DNA of 47,865 nucleotides from an uncultured Candidatus Sericytochromatia bacterium (GCA_964422885.1 CAYRDV010000002.1:1-47865), one strand, 5' to 3'; positions 3,360-47,865 are shown, counted from the first letter of the stretch. The notes: generated from the letters alone by a model not told the origin. Numbers and translations: made by a program.

Positions 3360-4453
3360 TTATTTTCCTCCATTTTAATACGACTTATATTTGATTTATG
3401 TGGGTTTAATATATAAAGGAATTTATTTTTATTATCAATTGCTAATTTAACATCTTCATCAAGATAGGTATTTATTAAAACTGTCATTTTTCCTTCAGGA
3501 GACACTTTATAAATAGCACTTGTACCAGCAAAATCATCGCTCATTGGTAGAGATACAAAAGGATCTCCAAAATATACATTATCCTTATCATCTATAGCTA
3601 TTCCTGTTGTTTCTGCCAGATTATTTGAATTTAGCTTTGGTTTTATGTTATTTAGAAAATCAATTAATTCACCATCAGGAGTTATTTTAGTTATTTTCTT
3701 ATAAAAAGAACTAAATTCATGGATTACATATAAATAATTCTTACTATCTATAGCAATATCATAAATTTCATCGTTACTACTATCAACCGCAATATTACTA
3801 CCATTTTTATAATTTAACTCTTCTGCAATTCCATTCCTGATTCTATAAATTTTACTATAACTAACTATATACAAATAATCATTTTTATCTATAGCTATTG
3901 CTTTGGGGTAAAATGTAAAATCAACTAATTCTTTATCTTCTGGACTTTTTTGTATTTTTATTTTTAATGTTGTTACTTCTCCTTCGGAAGTTATTTTTCT
4001 GATTTTACTATCATATATAGTTTCAACAGTTTTTCTTCCTTCAGAATTAATTTTTTCTATTACACTATTACTTGCGTCTGCAACATAAAGATTCTCATTG
4101 CTATCAATGTCTATACCTACAGGATTTTTAAATCGTGCCTCTGTTCCCTTTCCATCCTGAAATCCAAATTCTCCATTACCAGCAAAGCTTGTAACTTTTC
4201 CTTCAGGGGTTACTTTTCTTATTCTCGCTCTATCAGTTACATATAAATTACCCTCTTTACCAATAGTCGCATTATCAACTCCCCAAAACCTAGCTTCAGT
4301 CCCAATCCCATCTTTAAAACCAGATTTATCTTTATCATCATATTTACCACTTCCACCAGCAAAAATAGGTAACTCTATATACTTAGTTCCACAATTCATA
4401 ATCAAGAATGCAAATATTGAAACTACTATTAAGTTAGTAAATTTAATTTTCAT
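3356..4453 (-). CDS. NHL-repeat beta-propeller lipoprotein
   Basis: 365 aa with signal peptide and lipobox (FLIMNCG). Repeated NHL-like units (GTEARF..P.GIDID..NLYVAD..N..I.KI...G). Confidence 0.8.
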   Translation of the reverse strand: MKIKFTNLIVVSIFAFLIMNCGTKYIELPIFAGGSGKYDDKDKSGFKDGIGTEARFWGVDNATIGKEGNLYVTDRARIRKVTPEGKVTSFAGNGEFGFQDGKGTEARFKNPVGIDIDSNENLYVADASNSVIEKINSEGRKTVETIYDSKIRKITSEGEVTTLKIKIQKSPEDKELVDFTFYPKAIAIDKNDYLYIVSYSKIYRIRNGIAEELNYKNGSNIAVDSSNDEIYDIAIDSKNYLYVIHEFSSFYKKITKITPDGELIDFLNNIKPKLNSNNLAETTGIAIDDKDNVYFGDPFVSLPMSDDFAGTSAIYKVSPEGKMTVLINTYLDEDVKLAIDNKNKFLYILNPHKSNISRIKMEENK

Positions 4454-4583: not shown

Positions 4584-5594
4584 CTAAAACCTCCGAATTG
4601 CTGTGCCAAACGGGGTTGAGTAGCTTATGACGTGACTTGTAAGTTTTTGAAATTCTTTATAATCTGGAATATGAATAATAGATTCATAAACAATATTTCC
4701 AGTCGTATCCTTTGATATTACAGTACTATGTCCCCAGGAAAATCTAGAATCAATTTTTGAAAAGCTAAACTTGTAAAATACAGGAAAGTTTTTTCCTTTT
4801 ATTTTAATAGCAATAGGTGTTTCTTTGTTGAGTTTTTTAAAATCATCTTCATCATGAGCAACTTTAAAAGCAAGCTCATCTTTATCTTTATATAAGTCTT
4901 TTACCTTTAATATCTTTATTTCTTCAATTACCGGAGATAAACTTGTTTTTGGTGTTTCTGGATTACCAAACCTGATTAATGTATCAGTTATCTCTTTATC
5001 CTTTGATATGATGCTTAACTTATGAAGCCCTAACAGGTAATAATCACTTACAGCATGAGTTTTTACTTTTACCTTAATTTCATCTCTTGTTGCCGAAACA
5101 GGTTCAAGTAATATTGAATCATCAATCAATATTTTTGTTTTTGGGTTATCTTCGCTAGTATAAGAAAGTTGTAAAAGATTTGGCTCATTTTTAAAAAATA
5201 TATATGGTGCAGCTATAACATCATCATTAAATTTACCTTTGATACTTATTACAGTTTCATTTTCATTTGAATAATCAGGTTTTATAAATCCTATTCCTTT
5301 TTGATCTATCTGTTCACCAGTAGAAGAAATAATAACCTTATCAATTACAATTTTTGAGTGTTTTTTTAGAAAATATTTAAACCATGATTTTATTTCTTCT
5401 TTATAATCTTTTTTATCTTTATCAAAAGATTTTAAATCCAAAGTTTCAAATGAAAGCCTTGTATCAGCAGTTATTTTATCAGGGATTAAGTAATCTTCAG
5501 CACTTTTAAATTTTTTCGTATCTGAAATTACATTCCCACAATTAGCTAAAGATAATGCTATAAATATTGTGGATAAAATCCTTAAAAGCTTCAT
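4584..5594 (-). CDS. Lipoprotein of unknown function
   Basis: 336 aa, ATG start, signal peptide with lipobox (ALSLANCG). No motif recognised. Confidence 0.7.
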   Translation of the reverse strand: MKLLRILSTIFIALSLANCGNVISDTKKFKSAEDYLIPDKITADTRLSFETLDLKSFDKDKKDYKEEIKSWFKYFLKKHSKIVIDKVIISSTGEQIDQKGIGFIKPDYSNENETVISIKGKFNDDVIAAPYIFFKNEPNLLQLSYTSEDNPKTKILIDDSILLEPVSATRDEIKVKVKTHAVSDYYLLGLHKLSIISKDKEITDTLIRFGNPETPKTSLSPVIEEIKILKVKDLYKDKDELAFKVAHDEDDFKKLNKETPIAIKIKGKNFPVFYKFSFSKIDSRFSWGHSTVISKDTTGNIVYESIIHIPDYKEFQKLTSHVISYSTPFGTAIRRF

Positions 5595-5746: not shown

Positions 5747-5790
5747 TTATTTGATTATTTGATTATTTGATTATTTGATTATTTGATTAT
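5747..5790. repeat. Tandem 8-bp repeat (TTATTTGA) x5.5
   Basis: Read directly: ttatttga repeated five times plus ttat. It sits about 150 bp upstream of the 4584..5594 start in a 511-bp intergenic region. Confidence 0.9.
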
Positions 5791-6105: not shown

Positions 6106-8856
6106 TTATTTTGCAGTTCTGAAGCCGATATAATTGCTCCTGTTGGCAGGAGAACTATAGAACCTGGAATAAGATTTCATGGAATCATTTATTTTTGCAG
6201 TTTCATTTTCAAATGCCGGGTGATTATACCATGAACCTCCCCTGAGTGACTTGGAGCCACCTATTCCAGGCCCCTGTGGATTATCAGAAGGGCCATTACT
6301 GTAATATTTGTCATTATACCAGTCATTTACCCACTCATAAGCGTTTCCTGACATATCTCTCAAGCCAAAATAACTATCTCCACCAGTAAACGAACCAACA
6401 TCAGCGGTATATTGAAAACCATCTTCTTTTCCAAGCGTTCCAAAGAATCCGTTCGCTTTTTTATTGCCACCGGAAGCTTCATCACCTCCCCAAGGATATA
6501 TTCTTTCATCTTTGCCTCTGGAAGCATATTCCCATTCAGCTTCAGTTGGCAATCTTCTACCTTTATACCGGGCAAATGCTTCTGCTTCATACCAGCTTAC
6601 TCCAACAACAGGCTGATTTGGACGGTTAAACCTGGTATCATTCCAATACAAAGGTTCCATCACATCATTATCAGTTTTCCATTGCCAACCTTCAACAGAC
6701 CACAAACACTGATTACTATAACCACTACCACTAACAAAACTTGAAAACTGACTATTTGTAATTTCATTACGATCAATCAAGAAATCACGAAGTGACACTT
6801 TATGTTTTGGATCAAAGTCATCGTCATCATCTCCATCATGTCCCATATTAAATTCTTTTACAGCTTGGATATAAACCATACCATTAGTGTCAGGGCTGGT
6901 ACTGCTACAGTTTGCATCAGTTGCTCCGGTTGTCAGGCTAAAATAATTTGTACTGGTTTCAGAACCTTTTGAAGAACTTACTGTTACCAGATACAAATCT
7001 ACACCTGCAATATCAGGAAAATCTACAGTTAAAGAAGTTGATGAACCTATAGCAAGATTTGAACCACTAAATACATGGCCTGTTTTGAGATTTTTAAAGC
7101 TTACTGACAAATCGGATGAACTATTAAAATTATTCCCGCTAATAGTTATAGATGTACTCTTTGCCCCTGATGTTGGAGAAAAGGATGAGATGCTTGGCCT
7201 TGAATCGAAACTGGCTTTGCTGAAATAAAAGAAATTATTGTGGATATTATTTCCTTTGGAAGTCTTGACCATTATTTTAGAGTTTGTAGATGAAGAACTA
7301 ACATCAGGAACTTTCGCTTTAATTTCTTCTTTTTTTACAGAGACATCTGCATTAGGAACTTTTACATCATTAAACCATACTTCAGTAGCTCCTGGATTTT
7401 CATCAAAATTTGTTCCTTTAATTACCACAACAGTGCCTTTTGTTCCTGATGCCGGACTAAAGGAATCTATCCTTGGGCCTTCACCAGTATCTGAATGAAC
7501 AACTTTTATAGTAATCACTTTTGTTGTTTTGGTAAGATCGTCTGTTGCTTTTGCAACAATAGTAGCAGTCTTTTCAGATGAGCCATCAGTAATACTTAAT
7601 GCATTGACTGAACCACCTCCGACATTAACAACAGTACTATCTGAGGTTTCCCATGTAATACTCTGATTTTCAGTATCATCTTCCATAATAACAATTGCTT
7701 TCAGATTAATATTTTGACCTTCACCAAGATATATTATGTCAGGAACCATAGTGCCATTTTCCAAATCCTCAAATTCTATTGAACGAACACCAATATTTTC
7801 TTTAACTAAGGTTAGAATATCATTAGGTCCAACATCAATTGTAGAAGAAAAATCTTCTTTATTAGAAACAATAACTTTACCATCGGTAACATTGATAAAC
7901 CTTTTTATAAAGAAATTTTTACCATCATCAGAGCCGCTGATTCTCATTTCCCACTTACCAGAACTAAGGTCTTCTATAGTTGTTGTTTCATCAGCAGTAT
8001 TGTCAATATTTTTGGCAGTTAGATCATTTATTGTAATTTTGAAATTTTTTAAAAGAGTTCCTGCTCCATTATCAACTCTGATTCTTAGTTTACCTTTTAT
8101 TTCTTTATCCAGCTTCCCGGTTTTATATGAAGGAACATATTCATCTGGACTATGACCGGAAACATAAAAACCCGGTACATATTTTGGATCATCAGCATGA
8201 TCTTCAAAATCGCTAATAATCGAATCAATATTCACAAAAGAAGGATGAACACCACCATAAGAATTGGTGTTTGGATCATAACCTGTAATATCTCCCATCA
8301 GAGTTTCAAATTTTTTAAACTCATTTACCTGAGCAAATTTTCTTACTTTTTTGTCAGAATTTTCCATTAACCTTTTCAATAACATTGCCAGCGGAAAAGT
8401 ACCATAATTAATTTTTAGGGTAGTATTTGTTCCGGCAACAATATTAGTCGCAGCCATAAATTTTGTCAGGGTAACATCATTACTGTCTCTTGATTCAATC
8501 GAAATTACTTTGTTATTGCCCTCATTTATAGCAATTTCAATAAATTCGCTTGAATTAACCTTATCAGTAATTTTTTCCAATGTTGGTAAAACATTACCAG
8601 CTTCATCAACACTATAAACACTTACTTTAATATTTTGAACATTACCGCTATTAAAATCAAATTTCTTTACTGAGAATTTCTGTTTGCCAGGATTTAAAAT
8701 ATCTTTCAGATTTATTCTTAAAATACCCTGCCGGGTCTTAGATTGAATCTGCTGATCAGGTTTTAAAGAAATTGGCGAAATATTCTCGGAACAAGCTACT
8801 ACAGAAATAGCCAAACTAACTGATAGTAGTAGTTTCGGAAAGTTTTTTATTTTCAT
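6106..8856 (-). CDS. Lipoprotein with Big2 and 2x IPT/TIG Ig-like domains and a C-terminal FGE-sulfatase (SUMF1) fold domain
   Basis: 916 aa, lipobox (SVVACSEN). Big2-like ITWETSDSTVVNV. IPT/TIG-like GPRIDSFSPASGTKGTVVVIKGTNF and PSISSFSPTSGAKSTSITISGNNF. FGE hallmarks PVVGVSWYEAEAFARYKGRRLPTEAEWEYASRG and RGGSW. Confidence 0.85.
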   Translation of the reverse strand: MKIKNFPKLLLSVSLAISVVACSENISPISLKPDQQIQSKTRQGILRINLKDILNPGKQKFSVKKFDFNSGNVQNIKVSVYSVDEAGNVLPTLEKITDKVNSSEFIEIAINEGNNKVISIESRDSNDVTLTKFMAATNIVAGTNTTLKINYGTFPLAMLLKRLMENSDKKVRKFAQVNEFKKFETLMGDITGYDPNTNSYGGVHPSFVNIDSIISDFEDHADDPKYVPGFYVSGHSPDEYVPSYKTGKLDKEIKGKLRIRVDNGAGTLLKNFKITINDLTAKNIDNTADETTTIEDLSSGKWEMRISGSDDGKNFFIKRFINVTDGKVIVSNKEDFSSTIDVGPNDILTLVKENIGVRSIEFEDLENGTMVPDIIYLGEGQNINLKAIVIMEDDTENQSITWETSDSTVVNVGGGSVNALSITDGSSEKTATIVAKATDDLTKTTKVITIKVVHSDTGEGPRIDSFSPASGTKGTVVVIKGTNFDENPGATEVWFNDVKVPNADVSVKKEEIKAKVPDVSSSSTNSKIMVKTSKGNNIHNNFFYFSKASFDSRPSISSFSPTSGAKSTSITISGNNFNSSSDLSVSFKNLKTGHVFSGSNLAIGSSTSLTVDFPDIAGVDLYLVTVSSSKGSETSTNYFSLTTGATDANCSSTSPDTNGMVYIQAVKEFNMGHDGDDDDDFDPKHKVSLRDFLIDRNEITNSQFSSFVSGSGYSNQCLWSVEGWQWKTDNDVMEPLYWNDTRFNRPNQPVVGVSWYEAEAFARYKGRRLPTEAEWEYASRGKDERIYPWGGDEASGGNKKANGFFGTLGKEDGFQYTADVGSFTGGDSYFGLRDMSGNAYEWVNDWYNDKYYSNGPSDNPQGPGIGGSKSLRGGSWYNHPAFENETAKINDSMKSYSRFYSSPANRSNYIGFRTAK

Positions 8857-12548: not shown

Positions 12549-12872
12549 ACCTAACCTTCTCCTTTTAAACCAAAGTTTAATTTAAAAAACAAAACTAACT
12601 TTACTTAATAAAGGCTTTACTTTTAGCATTTAAATATCTCCTCTTGAGGGATTAATTTTATTATATATAGTCTATTCCCATATTTGAATAAATTTACTAT
12701 GAAATAAATGTGAATTTAATGTGAATTTTTAAATTAACACTAAATTAACAAATTTTCTTATATTTTTCCAAATAAGTGTATTTATCACTAAATTATGGTG
12801 ATTACAAGCACTGAGTTATATTTCTATAAAAGATATGATGTTTTTTGTAAAGGGCATTAAGTGAGACAATAA

Positions 12873-18654: not shown

Positions 18655-20400
18655 TTAGGTTTTTAAAAGAAAGCCAATAATAAACCTGCCAAATTTATTC
18701 AGTAGCGGTAAAGCAGAAATGGTTTGTTTATTAGCAATTATTACTTCTTTATCAGTTATCACTTCAGGAACTGTAGTTTCACAGAAAATACCTATTTTGG
18801 AAAGCTTTGTAAGGCTGCTGCCAGTTATCATATTACAAATTTCGGCAATAAATGATTCATCCATTTTATTTGATTTCATATGATAAGAAACTATCAGTGA
18901 ATCCGTTAGATTTTCAAAAAAGCTGCGATCAAAAATATAAAACACCTGCCCATTTAAATTTCCACTGATATTAAAAGTGATACAAATAATATTAGTTAGA
19001 GGCGTATTAAATGATACTTTAGCAAACTTTCCCATTTCAGTTGGAAAATTAAGATAAGTACTTAAAACTTCATTAATAGAAGTAATAAATGATGTTTCAT
19101 AAGAAATTTTTGCCAGTATAGTATTGCACCATCTTAAAATTTTCAGACATTCTTCCAGATTTTCCTTAGTAAGGTATTTAAGTTCTACCAAAGCCTCACC
19201 TATATGCAACATTCGGTTAGCCAATTCATGGCGATATCTGAACGTTTCATCTATCTGAGCCTCGTTTACCAGCCCAAGCTCAACAGCAATCTGGCCAAAT
19301 TTTAACCAGGCTTCACGGGTTTCCAGCCCTTCATTTTTTCTATACAGCAGGAGTTCCTGAGCGTCTAGTTTCAGAATAAATTTAAAAAATTCCAGTTTAG
19401 AAAAGTTAAAGACCTTTTTATTATCTTCAAAAATTTTATATAGTGATGCATTGCCATCAATTATATTTAGCATCATAGCATAAGCCCGGTTCTCTGGTTT
19501 TGACATCAAAACCTTTGCTGCATCAGCCAGAATCGGTATTATAAAATCCAGGATGCTTCCTGCACTTTCAATAAGGCTTCTTTCAATTTTGTTATTCATT
19601 GAATTTGACTGGAGCATTTCAGTTAAAAAGAGAGACTTATCGATAAGATGTGCCAGCCATTTCTGAATTTTTAAAGCATCTCTTAAAACATTTTCGGTGA
19701 TAAATCTTAGTTCAATCATTGCCTCACCGATTAACATACCACTGGTTGTTTTTTTATAATTTGCCGCATTTCTGAGATTTACTTCATGAATAAGGTCACA
19801 TTCCAGCAATATATCCCCTATTTTTACCCAACCAGATTTTTTATTTATATTTTTTGTTTTAATAAAAGTAACAAGGCTAGCCATATCAATTTCCTGCATA
19901 TAAAGTAAAAATTCCAGAAAATTTTTATGAATATTATTTTTTTCAAAAATCTCAAAAACCGAAGAATGATTATCAATCATTTTTAAAAAAGAATAAATTT
20001 TGGTTGGAGTTGATAAATCATCCATAATAATCCGGCCTTTTTCAGTAAGTTTTGGGATTAAGGCTTTTGTTATCATTGTTAAAAAAGTAGGCTTTTCTGA
20101 ATCATCAGGGTTTGTAACAGGAACACTGGGATTTGTTGCGGTAACACTTATTTCCGATTTTGTAGCAACATTGGCTGAAGACCGGATTTCATTATTGTTT
20201 ATTTCTTTTTGCGATGATAAGTTTATTGCATGATGGGAGATAATATTTTTTTTAGTACTTTCAATTTCTTCTATTTTAGAGACTATTTCTTCTTTTATTC
20301 GCTCAATATGGCAGGCAAAGCCATACTTTGCACTTTCAGGCAAATATTCCGAGTATTCTGATAAAGTATCTATAATCTCAAAAATATGATCTTTAAGCAT
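18655..20400 (-). CDS. Multidomain protein: two MshEN/T2SSE_N-like modules plus a C-terminal CheC/CheX-like domain
   Basis: 581 aa.
- MshEN-like pairs: KIGDILLECDLIHEVNLRNA.. / LIGEAMIELRFITENVLRDALKIQ and KFGQIAVELGLVNEAQIDETF.. / HIGEALVELKYLTKENLEECLKIL
- C-terminus: SFIAEICNMITGSSLTKLSKIGIFCETTVP fits the CheC-family S-x3-E-x2-N-x(~22)-P site. Confidence 0.75.
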   Translation of the reverse strand: MLKDHIFEIIDTLSEYSEYLPESAKYGFACHIERIKEEIVSKIEEIESTKKNIISHHAINLSSQKEINNNEIRSSANVATKSEISVTATNPSVPVTNPDDSEKPTFLTMITKALIPKLTEKGRIIMDDLSTPTKIYSFLKMIDNHSSVFEIFEKNNIHKNFLEFLLYMQEIDMASLVTFIKTKNINKKSGWVKIGDILLECDLIHEVNLRNAANYKKTTSGMLIGEAMIELRFITENVLRDALKIQKWLAHLIDKSLFLTEMLQSNSMNNKIERSLIESAGSILDFIIPILADAAKVLMSKPENRAYAMMLNIIDGNASLYKIFEDNKKVFNFSKLEFFKFILKLDAQELLLYRKNEGLETREAWLKFGQIAVELGLVNEAQIDETFRYRHELANRMLHIGEALVELKYLTKENLEECLKILRWCNTILAKISYETSFITSINEVLSTYLNFPTEMGKFAKVSFNTPLTNIICITFNISGNLNGQVFYIFDRSFFENLTDSLIVSYHMKSNKMDESFIAEICNMITGSSLTKLSKIGIFCETTVPEVITDKEVIIANKQTISALPLLNKFGRFIIGFLLKT

Positions 20401-38564: not shown

Positions 38565-38664
38565 AGCCACAGATTTTCACAGATAAGAACACAGATAAAA
38601 AATAGTATTTTGTATTTTCCACTTTTTATTTAAAATCTGTGAGAATTCGTGTTTATCCGTGGCT
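38565..38664. repeat. Imperfect inverted repeat built from CAC(A/G)GAT motifs, between convergent genes
   Basis: The left arm is agccacagattttcacagataagaacacagat. The right arm, reverse-complemented, is agccacggataaacacgaattctcacagat. It is related to the ACGGAT arrays further right. Confidence 0.7.
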
Positions 38665-38675
38665 TAAGATCTAAA

Positions 38676-40265
38676 TCAGGATTCACCGTTAAGTGCTTTG
38701 AGTAAGTCGTCAACACTGATATCTTTGGCTTCTTCAGTTTTCTTTTTATTAACTGGAGGGCTTGTATTATTACCAGTTAGATTATTGGTTGACTTAATAT
38801 TTGATTCTATATCTTTCATAATAGAACTAAGTTCGCCTGTTTGTGACTTTAGAGGGGTTGGTTCTGATTTTAAGGCATTAACCAGACTATTCTCTTCCTC
38901 CGGTGATAATTTAAGCGGGCTGGGCTCTGATTTTAAGGCATCTAACAAGTCCTTCTTGTAAAGCTCCTGAGTTGGAGATTTATCGACAATAACAGTAGGA
39001 GATTTATCAACAAAAATACTGTTTTTATCCTGATTAATAGTTGAAAACAGGTTATCCTTATCCAGCTTTCCACCTTTAGTAGCCGAGGTACCTATACTAT
39101 TCAACAAATCCTGAGCTTTAAGCCCTGATTCAGATGGTATTGAAATATCATTAAGTGATTTAAGTAATTCTTCTGAAGTCAAAATATTTGGCGGTATACT
39201 ATTTAAAAGATCCTCAGGGGTAATTTTACTGGAAGAAACATTGTCCCCAACTTTTAAAAGGTCATTAGATTTAGCATTTTCAGCCTTAGATTTCATTAAA
39301 TCGTTAAAAGTAAATTTATCAGGAGGAATACTTTTTAACAAATCTTCTGAAGTAACTCTTTCCGGTGGAATACTGTTTAAAAGTTCTTCTGAGGTAATTT
39401 TTCCTGGAGGTACACTTATGGCATTTTTCAAATCATTAGTGGTAAGGCCACTTTTTCCTGTATTAATGGGAATTGTATTTAATAAATCCTGCGATGATAT
39501 TTTTCCTGGAGGGACACTTATAGCATTTTTTAAGGTTTCAAAATCAAGCTCTTTCTTTTTAGCCGCCTCTGGAGGAACAGTAGGAGAAACACCAAAATTT
39601 CCTGCCCCAGACATTTCATTTGATTTTATTGATGTCTTTGTATATTCTTCAGGTTTTGTCCTGGGAACCGAAGACGAAACAACAGGCATTTTTTTCTGGA
39701 TTGAATCAATTAAATCCTTATCTTTAAGATTCGTATCTCTTATTTTACCCGTAATTGCATTTTTTATATCTGCTTCAGACAGGTTTTCTGATTTTACAAT
39801 AAGTTTACCTTCATCAACCAGTGGATTCGCTTCAATAAGGTGTTGGGCTGCTTTAGCCATATTAAAAGTAGTTAACAGCTCAATTTTGGAATGAAATTCG
39901 GATTCATAATTAAAAAAGAATATTTCAATACTTTTTTGATTACCTAAAGTATCCAGTATTTTCCTGTCTTTATCATCATTCATGATTAAGCCGGTTTCAG
40001 ACTGGAAAAATTCGTTTGAACCCTCTGGCAGAATAAGAAGCCTTACAATAACTACTCTTGGGGCAGCCTTACTTTGTTCAACCTGCCAGGTCATTTTAGA
40101 TAAAGCAAGCTTATCAACATCCTGGGATGCCGTCTTTACCACAAAAACGAGTTTCTCTTTCCCAGAAACTTTTTCTTTAAATAAAAGAAGCCTCAAACCT
40201 CGCGGAGATTTTGTAGCTACTTTTGTCAGAAACCTGACTTCTCCAACGTCTAATTGCATACCCAC
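38676..40265 (-). CDS. Repeat protein with about 11 (S/T)x(E/D)(E/D)LL(N/K)SIP motifs, unknown function
   Basis: 529 aa. GTG at 40265 or ATG at 40259. A globular N-terminal ~150 aa is followed by repeats such as TSEELLNSIPP, TSEDLLKSIPP and TPEDLLNSIPP (aa ~243-392), plus ALKSEP(S/T)PLK x2 and VDKSPT x2. Confidence 0.7.
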   Translation of the reverse strand: MGMQLDVGEVRFLTKVATKSPRGLRLLLFKEKVSGKEKLVFVVKTASQDVDKLALSKMTWQVEQSKAAPRVVIVRLLILPEGSNEFFQSETGLIMNDDKDRKILDTLGNQKSIEIFFFNYESEFHSKIELLTTFNMAKAAQHLIEANPLVDEGKLIVKSENLSEADIKNAITGKIRDTNLKDKDLIDSIQKKMPVVSSSVPRTKPEEYTKTSIKSNEMSGAGNFGVSPTVPPEAAKKKELDFETLKNAISVPPGKISSQDLLNTIPINTGKSGLTTNDLKNAISVPPGKITSEELLNSIPPERVTSEDLLKSIPPDKFTFNDLMKSKAENAKSNDLLKVGDNVSSSKITPEDLLNSIPPNILTSEELLKSLNDISIPSESGLKAQDLLNSIGTSATKGGKLDKDNLFSTINQDKNSIFVDKSPTVIVDKSPTQELYKKDLLDALKSEPSPLKLSPEEENSLVNALKSEPTPLKSQTGELSSIMKDIESNIKSTNNLTGNNTSPPVNKKKTEEAKDISVDDLLKALNGES

Positions 40266-42862: not shown

Positions 42863-42900
42863 GAACACGGATTGGACGGATCAAACGGATATTCACGGAT
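42863..42900 (+). repeat. ACGGAT array, copy a (four hexamers, spacing 9-9-10)
   Basis: ggaacacggattggacggatcaaacggatattcacggat, with hexamers starting at 42867, 42876, 42885 and 42895. It lies between the P-type ATPase stop and the AAA gene stop. Confidence 0.85.
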
Positions 42901-42919
42901 TTTATTTATTCCTAATGTA

Positions 42920-44497
42920 TTACTGTTCATGCTTAACTATCCACTCTTTAATATTTCTTTCTTCGATATCAAAACTCACTCCAACAAGTAAGATTTCTTT
43001 TTTACTTGTTAGATATTTTTCGTAATATTTTTTTGTTTCTATTTGTTTTATGGCTTGTTTACTATTTGCCATTTTGAATTCGAAAACATAAATTCTTTCA
43101 TTAGTTTCTACTACAGCATCAATTCTCCCTTTATTCGTATGTACTTCAGCAGCTATTCGAACACCAATAAGTGTTAGTATTAAATAAATAATTGTATGAT
43201 AGTATGCTTCTTTATTAGCCATGAAAATTATTGCTGGAATATTGCTAAAAACTTCCTTTATTCTTTCAAAAAATTCATCAAGATCTTTGTTCTCTAAAGT
43301 GTTTACTAATCTTGAAATCATTATTTCATCATTATCCTGACTATTAGAAAATTCCATCAAAAGGTGGTTTAGAAAAGATGCTCTTACTTCGGTATTTGGG
43401 TAATTTAAAATATATTCTCTGAAAGGTGAAAGTTGGTTTTTAATCTCTTTTACTGTAAGATACCCTGTTTGAAAAAGTAATGATTCAACATTAATATTTT
43501 CTATTTCATAAGAATCAAATATTTTTGAATGAACTGCTTTATTTTCAAACTTTATGATATTAGTTTGATGCTCTTTTATAAGCTTTAATAAAAAAGCAGG
43601 AGTGCCTGTCTGAAACCAATAATTATTTATTGACTGATGTTCAAAAAGTAAAAGTATTGAATATGGATTATATACAAAATCTTTCCCGTTCCACGAATAG
43701 CCATTGTACCAATTCTTTATTGTATCTTTGGTTTCCTGCTCTGTTTTTTCTAATTTTTCAGCCAAGAGTTTTATTCTGTCTTCAAAGTAAAATTGTAATT
43801 GTTTTTCTGTATAACCTATGATAGTCGCAAAATTTTCTGAAAGAGTTATATCAGTTAAGTTATTCAAACCTGAAAACACGGATACTTTACTAAATTTTGA
43901 CACTCCTGTGAGAAAAGCAAACCTAATATATTCATCGCAAGCTTTTATTGTTTCATAAAAGTTTTTTAGGATATCTCTATTTTTCTTTGCTGTTTCTAAA
44001 TCATCAACAAAGTTTATTATAGGCTTGTCGTACTCATCTATTAAAAGCACGACTTTCTCTACTTTTGAAAGCTTTTTCAATAATTCCTTGAAACCATCTT
44101 TATAATTTTTTTCTTTAAGTTCAATTTTATTATCTTCTGCTAAACTTCTAATTGTGCTAAAAAAAGATTCTTCAAAACCCTGAGAGCCATGGGTATAAAG
44201 CATATTAGAAAAATCAATTCTGATAATGGGATACTTTTTCCATTCTTCTCCAGGGCTCCCTTTGGGAATCATTTTGTCATATATCCAAAGACCTTTGAAT
44301 AGCTCATGATTACCTGAAAATATTTCAGCTAAAGTGCTTATTAATAATGATTTTCCAAATCTTCTAGGGCGTGATAAAAAGAAATATTTTCCGTTATGGG
44401 TTAATAATTTATATATATCTTTTGTTTTATCTATATAAAGATAATTTTCTTTTATAAGATCTTTAAAAGTTTGTATGCCTAATGGTAAGTTTTTCAT
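42920..44497 (-). CDS. AAA-ATPase-like protein with C-terminal PD-(D/E)XK nuclease-family domain
   Basis: 525 aa. N-terminus LPLGIQTFKDLIKENYLYIDKT..FFLSRPRRFGKSLLISTL is typical of the 'AAA-ATPase_like' family. The C-terminal GRIDAVVE..IYVFEFK is a PD-(D/E)XK-like motif. Confidence 0.85.
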   Translation of the reverse strand: MKNLPLGIQTFKDLIKENYLYIDKTKDIYKLLTHNGKYFFLSRPRRFGKSLLISTLAEIFSGNHELFKGLWIYDKMIPKGSPGEEWKKYPIIRIDFSNMLYTHGSQGFEESFFSTIRSLAEDNKIELKEKNYKDGFKELLKKLSKVEKVVLLIDEYDKPIINFVDDLETAKKNRDILKNFYETIKACDEYIRFAFLTGVSKFSKVSVFSGLNNLTDITLSENFATIIGYTEKQLQFYFEDRIKLLAEKLEKTEQETKDTIKNWYNGYSWNGKDFVYNPYSILLLFEHQSINNYWFQTGTPAFLLKLIKEHQTNIIKFENKAVHSKIFDSYEIENINVESLLFQTGYLTVKEIKNQLSPFREYILNYPNTEVRASFLNHLLMEFSNSQDNDEIMISRLVNTLENKDLDEFFERIKEVFSNIPAIIFMANKEAYYHTIIYLILTLIGVRIAAEVHTNKGRIDAVVETNERIYVFEFKMANSKQAIKQIETKKYYEKYLTSKKEILLVGVSFDIEERNIKEWIVKHEQ

Positions 44498-44584
44498 AGC
44501 AAATGGTGTTTCAAAGCTTTCTTAATCAGGCCCCTTTTAATAAATAATCATTTAATATCATAGCATAAAGCTTTGTCAGTGGTT

Positions 44585-44723
44585 GAACAGAACACTGATT
44601 GAACGGATAATCGTAGAAAATGCTCTAAATATAGTATTTTTATATTTGATAGCGAAGATTAATCTAAAGCTAAATATTTTCTTTAAGTCCCCTCTTTTTG
44701 ACATGAAATGGAGAAGAGAGGGG
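44585..44723 (+). repeat. Composite dispersed element: degenerate ACGGAT array plus ~100-bp conserved tail ending in a CCCCTCT/AGAGGGG hairpin
   Basis: gaacagaacactgattgaacggataatcg, then tatagtatttttatatttgatagcg..taatctaaagcta.atattttctt, shared with 47729-47814. Confidence 0.75.
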
Positions 44724-44729
44724 AGTGAG

Positions 44730-44749
44730 CAAGGGGCTTAAGCCCCTTG
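44730..44749. repeat. 20-bp perfect palindrome CAAGGGGCTTAAGCCCCTTG, intergenic copy
   Basis: Identical to 28789-28808. It lies just downstream of the 44767 gene stop. Confidence 0.9.
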
Positions 44750-44766
44750 TTCCCGGTGAGTTAAAC

Positions 44767-45156
44767 CTAATTATTTTTTACCCATTTAGCATCAGAACCA
44801 ATTGTAATATCTTTTGTATCTAAAGTTTTTTGATTACTTCCATTATAAGCAACCTTTACTGTGCTATTAATGGCTTTTGCAGTAAACCCATCAGAAGTTA
44901 TTTTTATATCTTTAGCAGGGATGAATATACCACCAACCTGAATAGAAGCAAGGTTTTCAGGTACGATAGGGTTTACAGCTCCATTTTTATCAATGGATGT
45001 TAAAGAAATTGTTTTATTAATTCTTATAATCTTATTATCTGACTGATTAGTTGTAGGTACAATATCTGTCAAAGTTGCCCAGTTGGTAACACCATTACAT
45101 GCTGAGAGTAGACCTATTGATAAGGTTAACGATGTTGTTATTATTTTGTTTTTCAT
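44767..45156 (-). CDS. Short lipoprotein, truncated-looking member of the paralog family
   Basis: I prefer ATG 45156 (MKNKIITTSLTLSIGLLSACNG). It shares the signal peptide and the AVNPIVPENLASIQVGG segment with 46191..47654 and 13909..15120, but lacks their C-terminal domain. Confidence 0.65.
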   Translation of the reverse strand: MKNKIITTSLTLSIGLLSACNGVTNWATLTDIVPTTNQSDNKIIRINKTISLTSIDKNGAVNPIVPENLASIQVGGIFIPAKDIKITSDGFTAKAINSTVKVAYNGSNQKTLDTKDITIGSDAKWVKNN

Positions 45157-45180
45157 TTTTTCCCCTTTTTTTAAAATATA

Positions 45181-45218
45181 GAACACGGATTGAACGGATC
45201 AGACGGATATTCACAGAT
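45181..45218 (+). repeat. ACGGAT array, copy b (spacing 9-9-10)
   Basis: gaacacggattgaacggatcagacggatattcacagat, with hexamers at 45185, 45194, 45203 and 45213. It lies 24 nt upstream of ATG 45156. Confidence 0.85.
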
Positions 45219-45327
45219 AAAATAATTTAAATATATTTTCTCATATTCCCACTAACATTATTGACAATTCTTAATAACTGCGTTATTATTAAAATATGCT
45301 CATTTAAAATTAAATAAGGTGGTTCTA

Positions 45328-45510
45328 GTGAACGGACGAGAAATGATCCGGTATTTAAGAAAACATGGTTTTTGGGTAACTGATATTGATGGCTCACATC
45401 ATTACATGACAGATGGTACACATGAAACATGCGTTCCAGTCCATGGTGATAAAAGAGAATTAAATCCTAAAACTCAAGCCAGTATTCTAAAACAAGCCGG
45501 ATTAAAGTAA
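45328..45510 (+). CDS. hicA: HicA-family mRNA interferase toxin
   Basis: GREMIRYLRKHGFW..GSHHYM......VPVHG.KELNPKTQASILKQAGL matches the HicA pattern. GTG at 45328 lies 5 nt after AAGGTGG (the track starts at GTG 45319). Confidence 0.85.
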   Translation: MNGREMIRYLRKHGFWVTDIDGSHHYMTDGTHETCVPVHGDKRELNPKTQASILKQAGLK

Positions 45511-45577
45511 AGTAGGCGTAGAGGAGCACGTTATTAAAATCATTTTATTAAATTATTGTTTTAAGGATTGTTTGATT

Positions 45578-46066
45578 ATGAAAAATAGGTATTTAGAATA
45601 CCCTGCCCAAATTGAATATACAAATGAAGGGACAGTGGCTTATTTAGTAGAATTTCCTGATTTACCTCAATGTATTACTGAAGGAAATAGTATTGAAGAA
45701 GCAAAAAGTATGGCTAAAGAAGCTCTGTCTCTATGCTTGGATGTTTTGGTTAAAAATGATAAAGATTTCCCAAAACCTTCAAAGCTAGAAGGAGAAAATA
45801 TTTATTATATTACTGCTGAATTGGGTAAATCTACCTCTTACAGTGAATATCATAAAAAATCTTATGAAAAAAATAAGCAAAAAGTTCTTAGTAAAAAACG
45901 TGAAAAAGAATTAGAGCTGAAAAGCAAAGGTTATAAAGATTTTAGAGAAATGCTCCCTGCTCAAACCCTTGTTAAACTTGATAAATTAACTAAATCTCAA
46001 CATATTACCAGAAGAGAATTTATTACTAAGTTAATTGAGAAAGAATATACAAATTTAACTGTTTAA
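45578..46066 (+). CDS. hicB: HicB-family antitoxin with C-terminal ribbon-helix-helix-like segment
   Basis: YPAQIEYTNEGTVAYLVEFPDLPQCITEGNSIEEAKSMAKEAL is a HicB N-domain. The C-terminal LPAQTLVKLDKLTKSQHITRREFITKLIEKEY is RHH-like. ATG at 45578 (the track starts at TTG 45572). Confidence 0.8.
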   Translation: MKNRYLEYPAQIEYTNEGTVAYLVEFPDLPQCITEGNSIEEAKSMAKEALSLCLDVLVKNDKDFPKPSKLEGENIYYITAELGKSTSYSEYHKKSYEKNKQKVLSKKREKELELKSKGYKDFREMLPAQTLVKLDKLTKSQHITRREFITKLIEKEYTNLTV

Positions 46067-46119
46067 TAACTCCCCGGAGTACCGCAGGGCTGTCTTATTC
46101 TAAATAATTTGTAATACTG

Positions 46120-46163
46120 TTACATGATACTGTCAAAAGCATTGATAAGGTTAATGCTGCTAA
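46120..46163 (-). pseudogene. Orphan remnant of a paralog-family signal-peptide/lipobox region
   Basis: ttacatgatactgtcaaaagcattgataaggttaatgctgct matches 47593-47636 (the 5' coding end of 46191..47654) with few mismatches. It would encode ..LAALTLSMLLTVSCN but has no start and no body. Confidence 0.45.
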
Positions 46164-46190
46164 TCCTGAACCTCTACTAGATTGAGCTGG

Positions 46191-47654
46191 TTATTGTACA
46201 TACCGGTTTAAAGTTAATGGTAATCCCTTGTATTGAAGGAGTGTTTTATCACCTGCATCAAGCAAAGTTAAGGATAACTGATTTCCATTTAATACTTTCA
46301 GATTTGCTTTGAGAAATTCTTTATTATATGTACTATTTACCTCAAGTGATTCAACTTTTTCAGGATATGGACCGGTTCCGACATAATTGTCTCCACCGAC
46401 TGTAGTATGAAGTGAAAATGTGTTATTTCCTGCATTTCTGAATTCAAGGAGTATTCTTTTACCAAAACCGTTATAAATCCAGTAACCGATAAAATTATTT
46501 ACTGCCGTGATTTTCTGGACATTTACCTCACTGGGATTTTGATTTTTTTCAATTATCGGTTCATCTTTTTCAAGTGAGATACTTATGATAGTAGATTTCC
46601 CATCCTGATTTAAGGTAAGTTTTGGAATTCCGTCTGTAGTATTTTCCATTACAACATATGGTTTTGTTGTATCAAGGCTACCATCAGCTTTTGCTACACC
46701 AGTAACAACAGAGATTATTTCACCTTTTTCATTTTTATTTATTTGGGCTCTTAATGTTTCACCTGCCAAAGTATCAAAATATGGAACAATTACAGAGGAT
46801 TTTGGGTTGGTCAGATTGAAACTCATGATAAAATTTTTGAATTCATCGGCTGTAAAATCTACAGTAAATTGTCCACTGGAATTTTGGGTAACTTTTGGAT
46901 CTTTTTGCTCATTATTATCATTTTCAAATGGATCATGATTATCAAATTCTGATGGATCATGTTTATTAGTATCTGGTTTATCATCATCATTATTATTTTC
47001 TGGTTGCTTAATTGTGTGACACTCTTCAATATAATTTATCTTCTGAATTACGGAGCTATAGTTAGCGAATATTTTTCGAAATTCATATTCCGCACTGCTA
47101 ACATTATTCTTCTCAGCATGATTTTCAAGTGCATCAAGATCATTTATTGAATTATATATAATACTACCAATGCTTGAAACTGAACCACTTGAACAAAATA
47201 ATGCAGATTTATATTTTTCTTTCAGCGCCTGGTCCTGAGTATTATTTAGCTTAACTTCTATCTCTTTCTGAGTTTTTATTGACTTCTCCAAAGCCAACTT
47301 CATTTCTGAAACAATTTTTTTACTTTTATTAAACATCTGCTCAGGAGTAAGGCTTTGTTCTGTAGAATTTGCTTTTATCTTAAATGAAGTTCTGGACATG
47401 CCTATGTTTGATACTTTAAGCAGCTTTCCATTTATTTCAATTGATTCCAGATCCTCAATCGAAATAGGGTTCTCAACGCCATTTATCTTTTGCGTAATAA
47501 ACATTGTCCTCTGATTTATTTTTTTATTCTGGGTTGAAGAATTACTTTGGCTCTTTGTTATATCAGCAAGTGTTGACCAGTTAGTTGGCCCATTACATGA
47601 TACAGTCAAAAGCATTGATAAGGTTAACGCTGTTGTTATTATTTTGTTTTTCAT
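46191..47654 (-). CDS. Lipoprotein, long member of the paralog family
   Basis: 487 aa. MKNKIITTALTLSMLLTVSCNG. N-terminal VENPISIEDLESIEINGK. Acidic low-complexity centre. C-terminal domain homologous to 13909..15120 (..GYW..F.. LTL.D.. QY.G.P..L.R). Confidence 0.75.
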   Translation of the reverse strand: MKNKIITTALTLSMLLTVSCNGPTNWSTLADITKSQSNSSTQNKKINQRTMFITQKINGVENPISIEDLESIEINGKLLKVSNIGMSRTSFKIKANSTEQSLTPEQMFNKSKKIVSEMKLALEKSIKTQKEIEVKLNNTQDQALKEKYKSALFCSSGSVSSIGSIIYNSINDLDALENHAEKNNVSSAEYEFRKIFANYSSVIQKINYIEECHTIKQPENNNDDDKPDTNKHDPSEFDNHDPFENDNNEQKDPKVTQNSSGQFTVDFTADEFKNFIMSFNLTNPKSSVIVPYFDTLAGETLRAQINKNEKGEIISVVTGVAKADGSLDTTKPYVVMENTTDGIPKLTLNQDGKSTIISISLEKDEPIIEKNQNPSEVNVQKITAVNNFIGYWIYNGFGKRILLEFRNAGNNTFSLHTTVGGDNYVGTGPYPEKVESLEVNSTYNKEFLKANLKVLNGNQLSLTLLDAGDKTLLQYKGLPLTLNRYVQ

Positions 47655-47677
47655 TTTTTTCCTTTTTTTAAAATATA

Positions 47678-47814
47678 GAACACGGATTTAACGGATCAGA
47701 CGGATGATTACGGATAAAATAATCTAACTATAGTATTTTTATATTTGATAGCGTAATCTAAAGCTATATATTTTCTTCAAGCCCCCTCTCTTGCTATGAC
47801 TGTAAGAGATGAGG
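47678..47814 (+). repeat. Composite dispersed element: ACGGAT array, copy c (spacing 9-9-10), plus conserved tail and imperfect CT hairpin
   Basis: gaacacggatttaacggatcagacggatgattacggat, with hexamers at 47682, 47691, 47700 and 47710. It lies 23 nt upstream of ATG 47654. The tail 47729-47814 matches 44630-44723. Confidence 0.85.
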
Positions 47815-47865
47815 ATTTAGCGATTGTCTTAAAAGTCAACAGTTAAAATCAAAAAATAAAAAATA

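Follow-up and report, generated by a model that had tools for sequence, protein, structure and literature searches.

The locus and its genes

The window analysed here is a stretch of 47,865 nucleotides from an uncultured Candidatus Sericytochromatia bacterium. Its last part combines a small block of genes with short phased repeat arrays, as follows.

38565..38664, no strand: gene-less inverted pair of arrays (hairpin or MITE-like), 3 units per arm
42863..42900, + strand: array 1, solo, 4 units (GAAC-CACGGAT-TG-GACGGAT-CA-AACGGAT-ATT-CACGGAT)
42920..44497, - strand: AAA-ATPase_like + PDDEXK_9 gene, with arrays 1 and 2 on either side in direct orientation
44585..44608, + strand: array 2, degenerate, lacking about one unit by deletion and lying upstream of the AAA/PDDEXK_9 gene, 87 nt from its start at 44497 (-)
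44612..44698, + strand: tail common to copies 2 and 4, 88-90% identity
44767..45156, - strand: short lipoprotein gene, its 5' end and upstream module common with the long lipoprotein gene
45181..45218, + strand: array 3, solo, 4 units, the last unit being CACAGAT
45319..46066, + strand: hicA-hicB toxin-antitoxin pair with its own sigma-70-like promoter
46120..46159, - strand: remnant from the signal-peptide region of a third lipoprotein, with 95% identity to 47593-47632
46191..47654, - strand: long lipoprotein gene, orphan
47678..47715, + strand: array 4, solo, 4 units, 24 nt from the long lipoprotein gene (ATG 47654)
47711..47826, + strand: copy-4 tail, with a CT-rich stem-loop at about 47783-47814

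The protein families recognised in the window are P-type ATPase, AAA-ATPase_like with PDDEXK_9, HicA and HicB, in agreement with the gene calls of an earlier note on this sequence. Neither lipoprotein matched a Pfam family, and the long one had no homolog among 5.8 billion proteins. The hicA promoter has the form TTGACA-17-TATTAT (45261-45289). Upstream of the lipoprotein genes lies a -10-like hexamer, TATATT; a promoter scan called no sigma-70-type promoter at their starts, and no -35 match was present there. The remnant at 46120-46159 shows local copying or recombination of the lipoprotein module. The gene block following the ATPase is not conserved in relatives, and two organisms related to that of the window, with 58% ATPase identity, contain no arrays in 22 kb each.

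Phased arrays in the window

The exact pattern ACGGATNNNACGGATNNNACGGATNNNNACRGAT, of the form ACGGAT-N3-ACGGAT-N3-ACGGAT-N4-ACRGAT, occurs at 42867-42900, 45185-45218 and 47682-47715, always on the + strand, and gave no match in 100 dinucleotide shuffles of the window. The three arrays thus have one spacing and one orientation, as the earlier note had claimed. The hexamer ACGGAT itself is found 24 times in the window (7.2 expected), with 11 of the 24 inside the three exact arrays. A looser scan, requiring 6 of 7 bases to match per heptad and at least 2 units, returned five array elements, all within 38.5-47.9 kb, and one two-unit match at 18893-18907; shuffles gave 0.3 such matches.

The layout around the copies likewise agrees with the earlier description. 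Array 1, placed there at the boundary with the P-type ATPase, is flanked by two stops: it begins 5 nt past the ATPase stop (42857) and ends 20 nt short of the stop of the AAA/PD-(D/E)XK gene (42920). Array 2, described as degenerate, has two recognisable units left, at 44589-44608 (AGAACACTGATTGAACGGAT). The start-codon distances hold as well, namely 87 nt to ATG 44497 for array 2 and 24 nt to ATG 45156 and ATG 47654 for arrays 3 and 4. Between the outer end of array 3 and the start of the minus-strand short lipoprotein gene lie TATATT and AGGGG, and the inner side of this array points toward hicA.

Array 4 sits within a 91-nt block whose counterpart around array 3 has 85% identity to it. The tail said to be common to copies 2 and 4 was recovered in two parts, 44612-44654 versus 47711-47753 (88% identity) and 44660-44698 versus 47754-47792 (90%), and the CT hairpin reported at its end corresponds to the CT-rich stem-loop listed above. 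Two stem-loops (about 44690-44760) follow the copy-2 tail, just past the stop of the short lipoprotein gene, and the copy-4 tail holds a possible second, very degenerate array, GAGGATTTAGCGATTG, at 47811-47826. What array 1 has in common with the other copies is the array alone. Copies 2, 3 and 4 were multiplied locally, and the 5' end of a lipoprotein gene and the region upstream of it were duplicated with them. Array copy 1 and the 38.6-kb hairpin are independent copies.

The inverted pair made of CACAGAT units, also noted earlier, is present though degenerate. Its arms read GCCACAGAT..CACAGAT..CACAGAT and ATCTGTG..ATTCGTG..ATCCGTGGC; it sits between two convergent genes, folds weakly (z = -1.9) and is identical in L123. 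Within the window, none of the four + copies has an inverted partner array at about 10-450 bp. Both the window and the source contig stop some 40 nt past the copy-4 tail, and an inverted partner of copy 4 could lie beyond. Rfam 15 covariance models matched neither the window nor 18 loci with hairpin copies.

The array family in other genomes and viral contigs

The motif, which the earlier note had allowed might be confined to this locus, is not local only. A three-unit pattern matched at least 120 genomic loci from many bacterial phyla and two archaea, the expectation that we estimate from the pattern length being about 17. The bacterial matches include Verrucomicrobiota, Planctomycetota, Acidobacteriota, Bacteroidota, Ignavibacteria, Chloroflexota, Leptospirales and Cyanobacteria, and the archaeal ones Methanoperedens and Methanosarcinales. 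A related pattern matched at least 120 stretches of IMG/VR viral contigs.

The unit of the family is the heptad C[A/G]C[A/G]GAT, present in 3-4 copies at 9-10 bp spacing, and the outer end common to the matches is T-rich and runs into GAAC or AACC. In the window arrays this end, aaatataGAAC-ACGGAT, agrees with the low-GC consensus of the family, TAGAAC-ACGGAT. Several conserved features were absent from the search pattern: a C before unit 1 (113 of 151 arrays), the outer A/T-rich stretch with (G/T)(A)AC, and a further unit, the fourth, at +10. Spacing of 9-9-10, as in the window, was seen 34 times among other arrays. The heptads show conservation at hundreds of unrelated loci, their 9-9(-10) spacing is retained and the spacer sequences change, so that the arrays look, on this indirect evidence, like phased protein-binding sites.

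As to arrangement, 85 arrays are in convergent pairs, 91 are solo and 29 are tandem. Arrays are intergenic, with no fixed relation or orientation bias to gene starts; among 213 arrays, outer ends are directed toward gene ends in 86 cases and toward starts in 66. No recurrent neighbouring gene or linked transposase was found near them. In 2.2 Mb of array-rich DNA no array was accompanied by a homolog of the AAA/PD-(D/E)XK, HicAB or lipoprotein genes, and the AAA-ATPase_like + PDDEXK_9 gene is a local neighbour of the arrays, not a family-wide partner. Same-orientation copies in series between genes were seen in L051, L018, L052 and L203, and in L026 solo ends in direct repeat adjoin a complete element.

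Association with GxxExxY nuclease genes

Two array pairs, with loops of 414 and 445 bp, enclose genes for GxxExxY proteins (TIGR04256 / Pfam PDDEXK_3), minimal PD-(D/E)XK nucleases of about 125 aa. For an independent test, 79 GxxExxY loci were collected by protein pattern only, with the arrays not used. An array was present within 200 bp upstream of the gene in 61 loci, downstream in 59 and on both sides in 54, the background in the same 79 loci being 0.29 arrays per kb. The flanking arrays are in inverted orientation, and the dominant geometry has a + array 20-80 bp upstream of the start codon and a - array 20-100 bp past the stop codon. Of the 164 flanking arrays, 112 are spaced 9-9, and the units in the whole set are CACGGAT (260), CGCGGAT (137) and CACAGAT (48), the last also being the unit of the window variant.

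Heptads are uniform within an element and different between elements. Around GxxExxY genes that lack CACGGAT the architecture is kept with CACAGAG, CGCAGAG, CAGGACT, CACGGAA or CGCGAAT; finished Bacteroides and Bernardetia records are among these cases. In 41 of 69 GxxExxY loci, a de novo test recovered one and the same periodic word on the two sides of the gene, in inverted orientation. We found no description of this link between arrays and GxxExxY genes in the searchable literature.

The catalytic D..ExK is retained, with D71, E81 and K83 invariant, and the AF2 model (pLDDT 91.8) has Cas4, lambda exonuclease and a restriction-endonuclease-like protein as its closest folds; from these residues and the predicted fold, the nuclease looks active. 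GxxExxY genes are very small, multi-copy and patchily distributed, at otherwise conserved intergenic positions. Within the 48-kb window none was detected by tblastn or by the family HMM on six frames. Elsewhere, more than 95% of arrays have no GxxExxY gene, and most genomic copies are gene-less, occurring as short hairpin pairs, tandem copies or solo intergenic ends. The single genes that the family brackets are mainly those for GxxExxY proteins. In viral contigs arrays are common and GxxExxY genes rare, and arrays can flank other genes there.

Proposed origin of the arrays

The window arrays are probably members of this cross-phylum family of phased-heptad repeats, whose complete form makes up the ends of a GxxExxY mini-element. 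There, two inverted array ends delimit an element of about 0.5 kb carrying a single GxxExxY gene, and the window would contain one gene-less hairpin (38565-38664) and four same-orientation solo ends (42863, 44585, 45181 and 47678). These four main copies are solo and direct, and so share only part of the family architecture.

The data show that the family exists, how it is built and that it goes with the GxxExxY gene; what we infer of binding, cleavage, mobility and any regulatory effect of the arrays is as follows. Each heptad may be the site for one subunit of an oligomer of GxxExxY protein whose gene lies elsewhere in the genome. This nuclease might work on an extruded hairpin, or else at the outer boundary or close to it, and its action might lead to the repeats being copied or recombined. 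Such a mechanism would be nearer to a REP/RAYT or homing-type system than to a DDE transposon. The GxxExxY gene could also be cargo that inserts into pre-existing hairpins, not the moving enzyme, and the matching heptads on both arms could reflect stem selection, not protein recognition. In the single presence/absence comparison, L203 versus L206, whole intergenic spacers are replaced with gene order kept, and an ordinary GC hairpin takes the place of the element in L206. No clean empty site was found, nor any target-site duplication in this comparison or in the flanks of complete elements.

A close parallel is with REP/REPIN-RAYT systems, in which, as here, one small nuclease-type gene is flanked by inverted short repeats, many intergenic copies, within and between operons, lack the gene and often form hairpin doublets, repeat sequence and associated gene co-vary, and there is no target-site duplication. 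The differences are that RAYT is an HUH/Y1 transposase while the protein here is a minimal PD-(D/E)XK nuclease, that an arm consists of 3-4 phased direct heptads instead of a small palindrome with a GTAG head, that REPs are species-specific while the main heptad here is found across phyla, in archaea and in viral contigs, and that GxxExxY genes are multi-copy and patchily distributed. With a PDDEXK_3 gene and arms of direct heptad runs, the family was rejected as a member of REP/REPIN-RAYT.

MITEs are similar in being short, non-coding and multi-copy, with terminal inverted repeats and AT-rich intergenic contexts; gene-less forms far outnumber gene-carrying ones, and insertion between operon genes is non-disruptive. 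The array family differs in that no DDE transposase or target-site duplication was seen, its ends are built of phased sub-repeats, and solo and tandem ends are common. Terminal inverted repeats are present at 38565-38664 and in the 85 convergent arrays elsewhere, and are absent from the four solo copies.

Free-standing homing endonuclease genes include the PD-(D/E)XK type I-Ssp6803I. They resemble GxxExxY genes as very small, selfish-looking nuclease genes that are patchy, horizontally transferred and found at conserved intergenic positions. However, homing endonucleases have one long recognition site that is disrupted by insertion, and the GxxExxY gene is bracketed by short-repeat arrays that also occur alone.

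Alternative explanations

The two intact arrays abutting TATATT, SD and ATG may secondarily occupy positions -13 to -50 of the lipoprotein promoters, and a cis-regulatory role would be compatible with the mini-element origin if a repeat was co-opted. As an explanation in itself, that the arrays are operator or activator sites, or promoter parts, which serve the minus-strand lipoprotein genes and bind a regulator cooperatively, the other copies being decayed duplicates, seems to us rather unlikely. Arrays 3 and 4 do end 4 nt before TATATT, with the SD and the ATG 24 nt away; an unrelated high-GC gene cluster has the same geometry (array, GGTCAAAAAT, ATG 25-31 nt from the outer end), outer-end-to-start distances cluster at 21-34 nt, and the best-conserved flank base is a -10-like A at +6 outside the array. 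However, copy 1 lies between two gene ends and so has no gene to drive, the lipoprotein starts have neither a -35 match nor a called promoter, and across the 213 arrays gene ends are faced more than starts. It is implausible that one regulon would extend over bacteria, archaea and viral contigs. The 3-4 direct repeats at about one helical turn recall plasmid Rep iterons, the omega heptads of ribbon-helix-helix operators and response-regulator boxes, and their spacing suggests cooperative binding of several subunits, as the earlier note proposed; those sites adjoin a cognate gene or origin in one replicon, whereas the arrays are dispersed over many phyla, often as inverted pairs. Since the arrays stand beside unrelated genes in many phyla and show no bias to starts, they are not a locus-specific operator. 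The phased protein-binding array of the earlier note is thus supported, indirectly, by conserved heptads and spacing with variable spacers; its operator or iteron of the locus is not.

The earlier note also raised recombination joints of exchangeable cassettes. That gene and array are moved together, in integron-like fashion, by a site-specific recombinase encoded elsewhere is, in our judgement, quite improbable. Same-orientation repeats do separate single, often orphan or TA genes, as attC sites do, and in the window the repeat-gene-repeat layout contains a reversed TA module with its own promoter, orphan genes and a gene remnant in a block past the ATPase that relatives do not conserve. Arrays bracket single genes elsewhere too (GxxExxY genes, a methyltransferase, phage genes), and some variants have an outer AAC...GTT. 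Yet they are direct-repeat runs without the secondary-structure architecture of attC-type imperfect palindromes, and GTTRRRY/RYYYAAC cores are absent, the outer ends being GTTCTAT in the window and GGTCAAA in the commonest high-GC form. With non-palindromic solo arrays, these outer ends and no integrase among the window ORFs scanned, an integron cassette array was rejected. In the one strain comparison, L203 versus L206, spacers alone differ, which speaks against exchanged cassettes, and duplication of one upstream module explains copies 2-4.

We hold it to be very doubtful that the arrays act at the RNA level, through stems that terminate, stabilise or undergo RNase III cutting, as in rRNA intervening sequences, or through protein-binding GGA motifs. 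The majority of family members do form inverted pairs whose arms are almost complementary and have A-rich and T-rich runs on their flanks, and the replacement by a GC hairpin in L206 would fit. Intervening sequences with a small ORF are found in the 23S rRNA of Leptospira and Coxiella; as with GxxExxY ORFs between two arms, the ORF lies inside terminal inverted repeats that would form a long transcript stem, and the taxa partly overlap. Their ORF encodes a four-helix-bundle protein instead of GxxExxY, however, and they are located in rRNA. The four window copies are solo, so that a stem cannot form, and the local hairpin folds weakly; a stem alone would not require conserved heptads beside variable spacers, no Rfam family matches, and solo arrays have no strand bias relative to transcription.

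Finally, chance, or a local duplication without wider meaning, has next to no probability left: the earlier note's simple duplication does account for copies 2-4, which have common flanks and may be one duplicated lipoprotein upstream module, but copy 1 and the 38.6-kb hairpin have nothing beyond the array in common with the other copies, and the explanation is refuted by the absence of shuffle matches and by hundreds of copies of the same architecture in other phyla, viral contigs and GxxExxY loci.

Phased arrays in the window

Each array consists of CACGGAT-type heptads, usually three to four units at 9-10 bp spacing, with an outer end that is T-rich and carries GAAC or AACC. The earlier note had claimed three intact arrays, a degenerate fourth copy and an inverted variant:

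38565-38664, inverted pair of arrays (hairpin)
42863, plus strand, array 1
44585, plus strand, array 2 (degenerate)
45181, plus strand, array 3
47678, plus strand, array 4

The pattern ACGGAT-N3-ACGGAT-N3-ACGGAT-N4-ACRGAT was recovered on the plus strand at 42867, 45185 and 47682 and occurred in 0 of 100 shuffles; these three arrays account for the roughly threefold over-representation of ACGGAT in the window. Array 2 was found at 44589-44608 with two units left, and the inverted variant is likewise present, in degenerate form. A looser scan of the window returned the five elements listed above, which all fall within its final 10 kb, and one two-unit match (18893-18907). The gene identities given earlier agree with the gene calls. 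A 529-aa ORF on the minus strand (38676-40265), with no Pfam family, directly adjoins the gene-less hairpin and has internal repeats, with a period of 42 nt at 39308-39401 and repeats of 65-82 nt at 39159-39533.

Independent same-strain assemblies from Hainich groundwater (ENA, Logan) also end at arrays. L123 (9700-9855), L122 (1-45) and L121 have ends that stop inside or just after arrays, owing either to assembly breaks at the repeats or to low coverage (~2x).

Distribution beyond the window

The arrays are not confined to this locus. A search for ACGGAT-N3-ACGGAT-N3-ACGGAT, covering one genome per species, gave at least 120 loci in many phyla, where by our estimate about 17 are expected by chance. 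Bacterial matches listed come from Verrucomicrobiota, Planctomycetota, Acidobacteriota, Bacteroidota, Ignavibacteria, Chloroflexota, Leptospirales, Cyanobacteria, KSB1, Armatimonadota and Desulfobacterales, and archaeal ones from Methanoperedens and Methanosarcinales. The related pattern CACGGAT-N2-CACGGAT-N3-ACGGAT was found in at least 120 stretches of IMG/VR, and a finished plasmid of Runella slithyformis holds an unannotated copy between esterase genes.

Conservation extends to bases outside the searched pattern. Among the matches listed, 113 of 151 arrays have a C ahead of the first unit, the third unit is often followed by a fourth at a distance of 10 bp, and the 9-9-10 pattern of the window recurs 34 times. 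The outer flank is A/T-rich and then reads TAGAAC where genomic GC is low, or TTGACC/TTAACC where it is high. It is unusual for non-coding DNA that a 7-bp motif and its spacing are kept in groups ranging from Bacteroidota and Planctomycetota to Methanoperedens, and in viral contigs as well.

Several matches have features of their own. Cyanobacterial ones (L009, L019, L027, L069, L106 and others, in Microcoleus, Calothrix and Tychonema) are tandem runs (GTAACGGAT)n of up to seven units preceded by GGAAGTTCGGCAACGGAT, which belong either to the same family or to a separate short tandem repeat. In L051 (Flavobacterium sp.), arrays lie inside larger tandem repeats (~370 bp at 1-1000, ~155 bp at 3590-3940) that also hold a second repeated motif, AATTTGCGAATTTGCGGTTAA. 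The viral contig L141 (GC 52%) has CACGGAT arrays adjoining CACGAAT-variant arrays (7340-7412 and 8384-8450), and some of its arrays sit in the gap from one gene's stop codon to the ATG of the next, which begins 1 nt past the last unit. In another viral contig, L175 (858-1676), an inverted array pair encloses a DNA methyltransferase-like gene with a DPPY motif, not GxxExxY. Where "viral" contigs carry ten or more copies, phage regulatory repeats were rejected, since the genes there have metabolic functions (ADH, E1 dehydrogenase) and a bacterial gene cluster is probable.

Arrangement and neighbours of the arrays

Among the matches listed, 213 arrays comprise 85 in convergent inverted pairs (loops of 8 to ~450 bp), 91 solo, 29 in tandem and 8 back-to-back. 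The arrays are intergenic. On either side, outer or inner, the gene boundary that they face is somewhat more often an end than a start, and no orientation is preferred. Same-orientation series between consecutive genes, as in the window, occur in Flavobacterium, Methanoperedens, an anammox MAG and a high-GC gene cluster with at least ten copies.

No regular neighbour gene family was found, transposases and the window's own genes included. A linked transposase was rejected by all-against-all clustering of neighbour ORFs, in which no family occurred in more than 9 of ~240 loci, and neither AAA/PDDEXK_9 nor HicAB or the lipoproteins has a homolog in 2.2 Mb of array-rich loci. With unrelated neighbours elsewhere and no orientation bias, the former reading of the arrays as operators of a cassette block is not supported, and the reading of the window changes to one of gene-less copies of a dispersed family.

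Two intergenic sites distinguish the related contigs L203 and L206: an element in one contig corresponds in the other to an ordinary GC hairpin or to a (GAGCTGA)n run. No target duplication was seen at these sites; the entire spacer from stop to start is replaced. For example, the site of the CACGGAT hairpin at 2369-2481 of L206 is occupied in L203 (5546-5601) by the heptamer run GAGCTGA GAGCTGA GGGCTGA GAGCTAA, that is, by a different short-period repeat at the same intergenic position.

Association with GxxExxY genes

The arrays form a family with a common architecture and are associated with a nuclease gene. In L026 and L115, inverted pairs with long loops enclose a ~125-aa ORF encoding a GxxExxY protein (TIGR04256, E = 1e-36 to 1e-39; Pfam PDDEXK_3). 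GxxExxY genes were then collected from metagenomes with a protein pattern alone, which kept the DNA motif out of the choice of loci. Among 79 such loci, an array lies within 200 bp upstream in 61, downstream in 59 and on both sides in 54; the background density across these loci is 0.29 arrays per kb, from which ~6% is expected per 200 bp. A search of viral contigs for GxxExxY gave 0 loci and then 2.

The usual layout is an outer end, three heptads, 10-40 nt, the gene from ATG to stop, 15-60 nt, three inverted heptads and an outer end; some genes have a complete hairpin on each side. The two outer ends are complementary to each other as far as TT(A/G)(A/G)CC and divergent beyond, with no target duplication seen. 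Spacing is 9-9 in 112 of 164 flanking arrays, with units CACGGAT, CGCGGAT, CACAGAT and CGCAGAT. Heptads are uniform inside one element and different between elements, and genes without CACGGAT show the same architecture built from CACAGAG, CGCAGAG, CAGGACT, CACGGAA or CGCGAAT, including RefSeq-annotated "GxxExxY protein" genes of Bacteroides finegoldii and Bernardetia. When 5-mers of any kind recurring every 8-11 bp were sought de novo, 41 of 69 loci had one and the same word, in inverted orientation, to either side.

Several organisms that are related yet distinct have GxxExxY elements at a shared intergenic position, before an SDR gene or before a pilT-like gene (L278, L286, L290, L291, L292; L309, L312, L322, L328), so that some insertions are old or site-preferring. 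No GxxExxY gene was found in the window, so its members are gene-less, namely one hairpin and four solo ends. In L026, solo ends in direct repeat adjoin a complete element, and the solo state is thus normal for the family.

The GxxExxY protein family is entered in a single survey as "unknown; prokaryotes and viruses; multiple transfers" (PMC3424549), and none of the three papers in the searchable literature that mention GxxExxY concerns its biology. An invariant D...ExK is formed by D71, E81 and K83. No solved structure related by sequence was found; the predicted structure (pLDDT 91.8) confidently indicates a minimal PD-(D/E)XK fold, nearest to Cas4, lambda exonuclease and a restriction-endonuclease-like protein.

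Possible mechanism and alternatives

The heptads may be subunit-binding sites of a GxxExxY oligomer, and the enzyme would cut either at the boundary or on the hairpin once it is extruded. Cutting would lead to copying of the repeats and the gene, in a REP/RAYT-like manner or as for a homing endonuclease gene. Such copying fits better than classical transposition because there are no target duplications and no DDE or HUH genes. Alternatively, the GxxExxY gene may have entered as cargo a hairpin that already existed, or the stem may matter at the RNA level.

We offer a further proposal tentatively and at less than even confidence: CACGGAT-type arrays and GxxExxY may constitute an undescribed cross-domain class of selfish element, REP/RAYT-like, with a minimal PD-(D/E)XK enzyme whose oligomer would read three to four phased heptads. 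Its specificity would have diversified (CACGGAT, CGCGGAT, CACAGAG, CAGGACT and others), and gene-less derivatives in intergenic DNA of many phyla and phages would have been recruited as modules near promoters or with a terminator-like role, as they would be upstream of the two lipoprotein genes here.

A small nuclease gene with dispersed gene-less repeats is a known kind of system. In the literature searched, which is incomplete, so that newness is not proven, we found no description of this enzyme class in such a system, of phased-heptad ends, or of the spread of one heptad across phyla, domains and viruses. The association gives a first functional handle on GxxExxY/PDDEXK_3, a very large family listed as "function unknown". 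If the nuclease reads the heptads, small repeats would have a new route of spread that needs neither a DDE nor a HUH transposase, and nature would provide a directly testable series of matched protein-heptad specificities. Many intergenic hairpins that lack annotation, and contig breaks in metagenome assemblies, would then also be explained.

Other identities were rejected. By eye, the sequence does not fit a DnaA box (ATCCGTG vs ATCCACA), parS, the XerD arm of dif, a sigma-54 promoter or an ECF promoter (GAAC...CGT); taxa and inverted pairs argue against CsrA GGA sites, a tRNA T-arm origin was dropped as the stem is not complementary, a two-tetrad G-quadruplex since arrays of three units are the commonest, and the CRESS-type nonanucleotide in the tail (TAGTATTTT) has a weak 4-bp stem. 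The cores do not fit attC, and an IS630-type TA target duplication was discarded since TA follows GTTC in many low-GC copies, not in high-GC ones. Rfam, at gathering and E-value thresholds, gave no family matches for the window and the hairpin-copy loci, and the array strings and MITE reviews yielded no matching sequence in the searchable literature.

Local duplication in the window

Arrays 2-4 belong to a ~250-bp module of stem-loops, tail, array, TATATT, SD and signal peptide, which was copied three or more times and has in part been overwritten; one of the copies is now located 5' of the AAA/PDDEXK_9 gene. Arrays 2 and 4 have a common tail of ~90 nt (88-90% identity), and arrays 3 and 4 a 91-nt block (85% identity) spanning TATATT, SD, start codon and signal-peptide region of the two lipoprotein genes. 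Array 1 has the array alone in common with the other copies. A third, orphan signal-peptide fragment at 46120-46159, ~30 nt past the stop of the long lipoprotein gene and 95% identical to 47593-47632, points to recombination or duplication at this locus. The lipoprotein promoters may have co-opted the two arrays next to TATATT.

The block around the arrays is lineage-specific. At the loci of the nearest ATPase homologs (Sericytochromatia/Cyanobacteriota MAGs, 58-60% identity), other genes follow the ATPase and there are no arrays. The long lipoprotein is an orphan with no homolog found, an exact-protein look-up of the AAA gene gave no match, and hicAB has its own near-consensus promoter. In HicB (45572-46066), the HicB_lk_antitox domain covers residues 10-73, and the C-terminal stretch (~residues 110-164) is, by eye, a candidate ribbon-helix-helix DNA-binding domain.

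Other repeats in the window

The window has two further repeats. At 12691-12750, in a long divergent intergenic region upstream of the plus-strand gene at 12873, ~3.5 copies of the 11-bp unit AAT(T/A)TAATGTG are followed by two roughly inverted copies of TAAATTAACAC; this looks like an operator-type phased repeat with a motif other than that of the arrays. At 5747-5790, the 8-mer TTATTTGA is perfectly repeated 5.5 times in tandem between the minus-strand genes 4584-5594 and 6106-8856.
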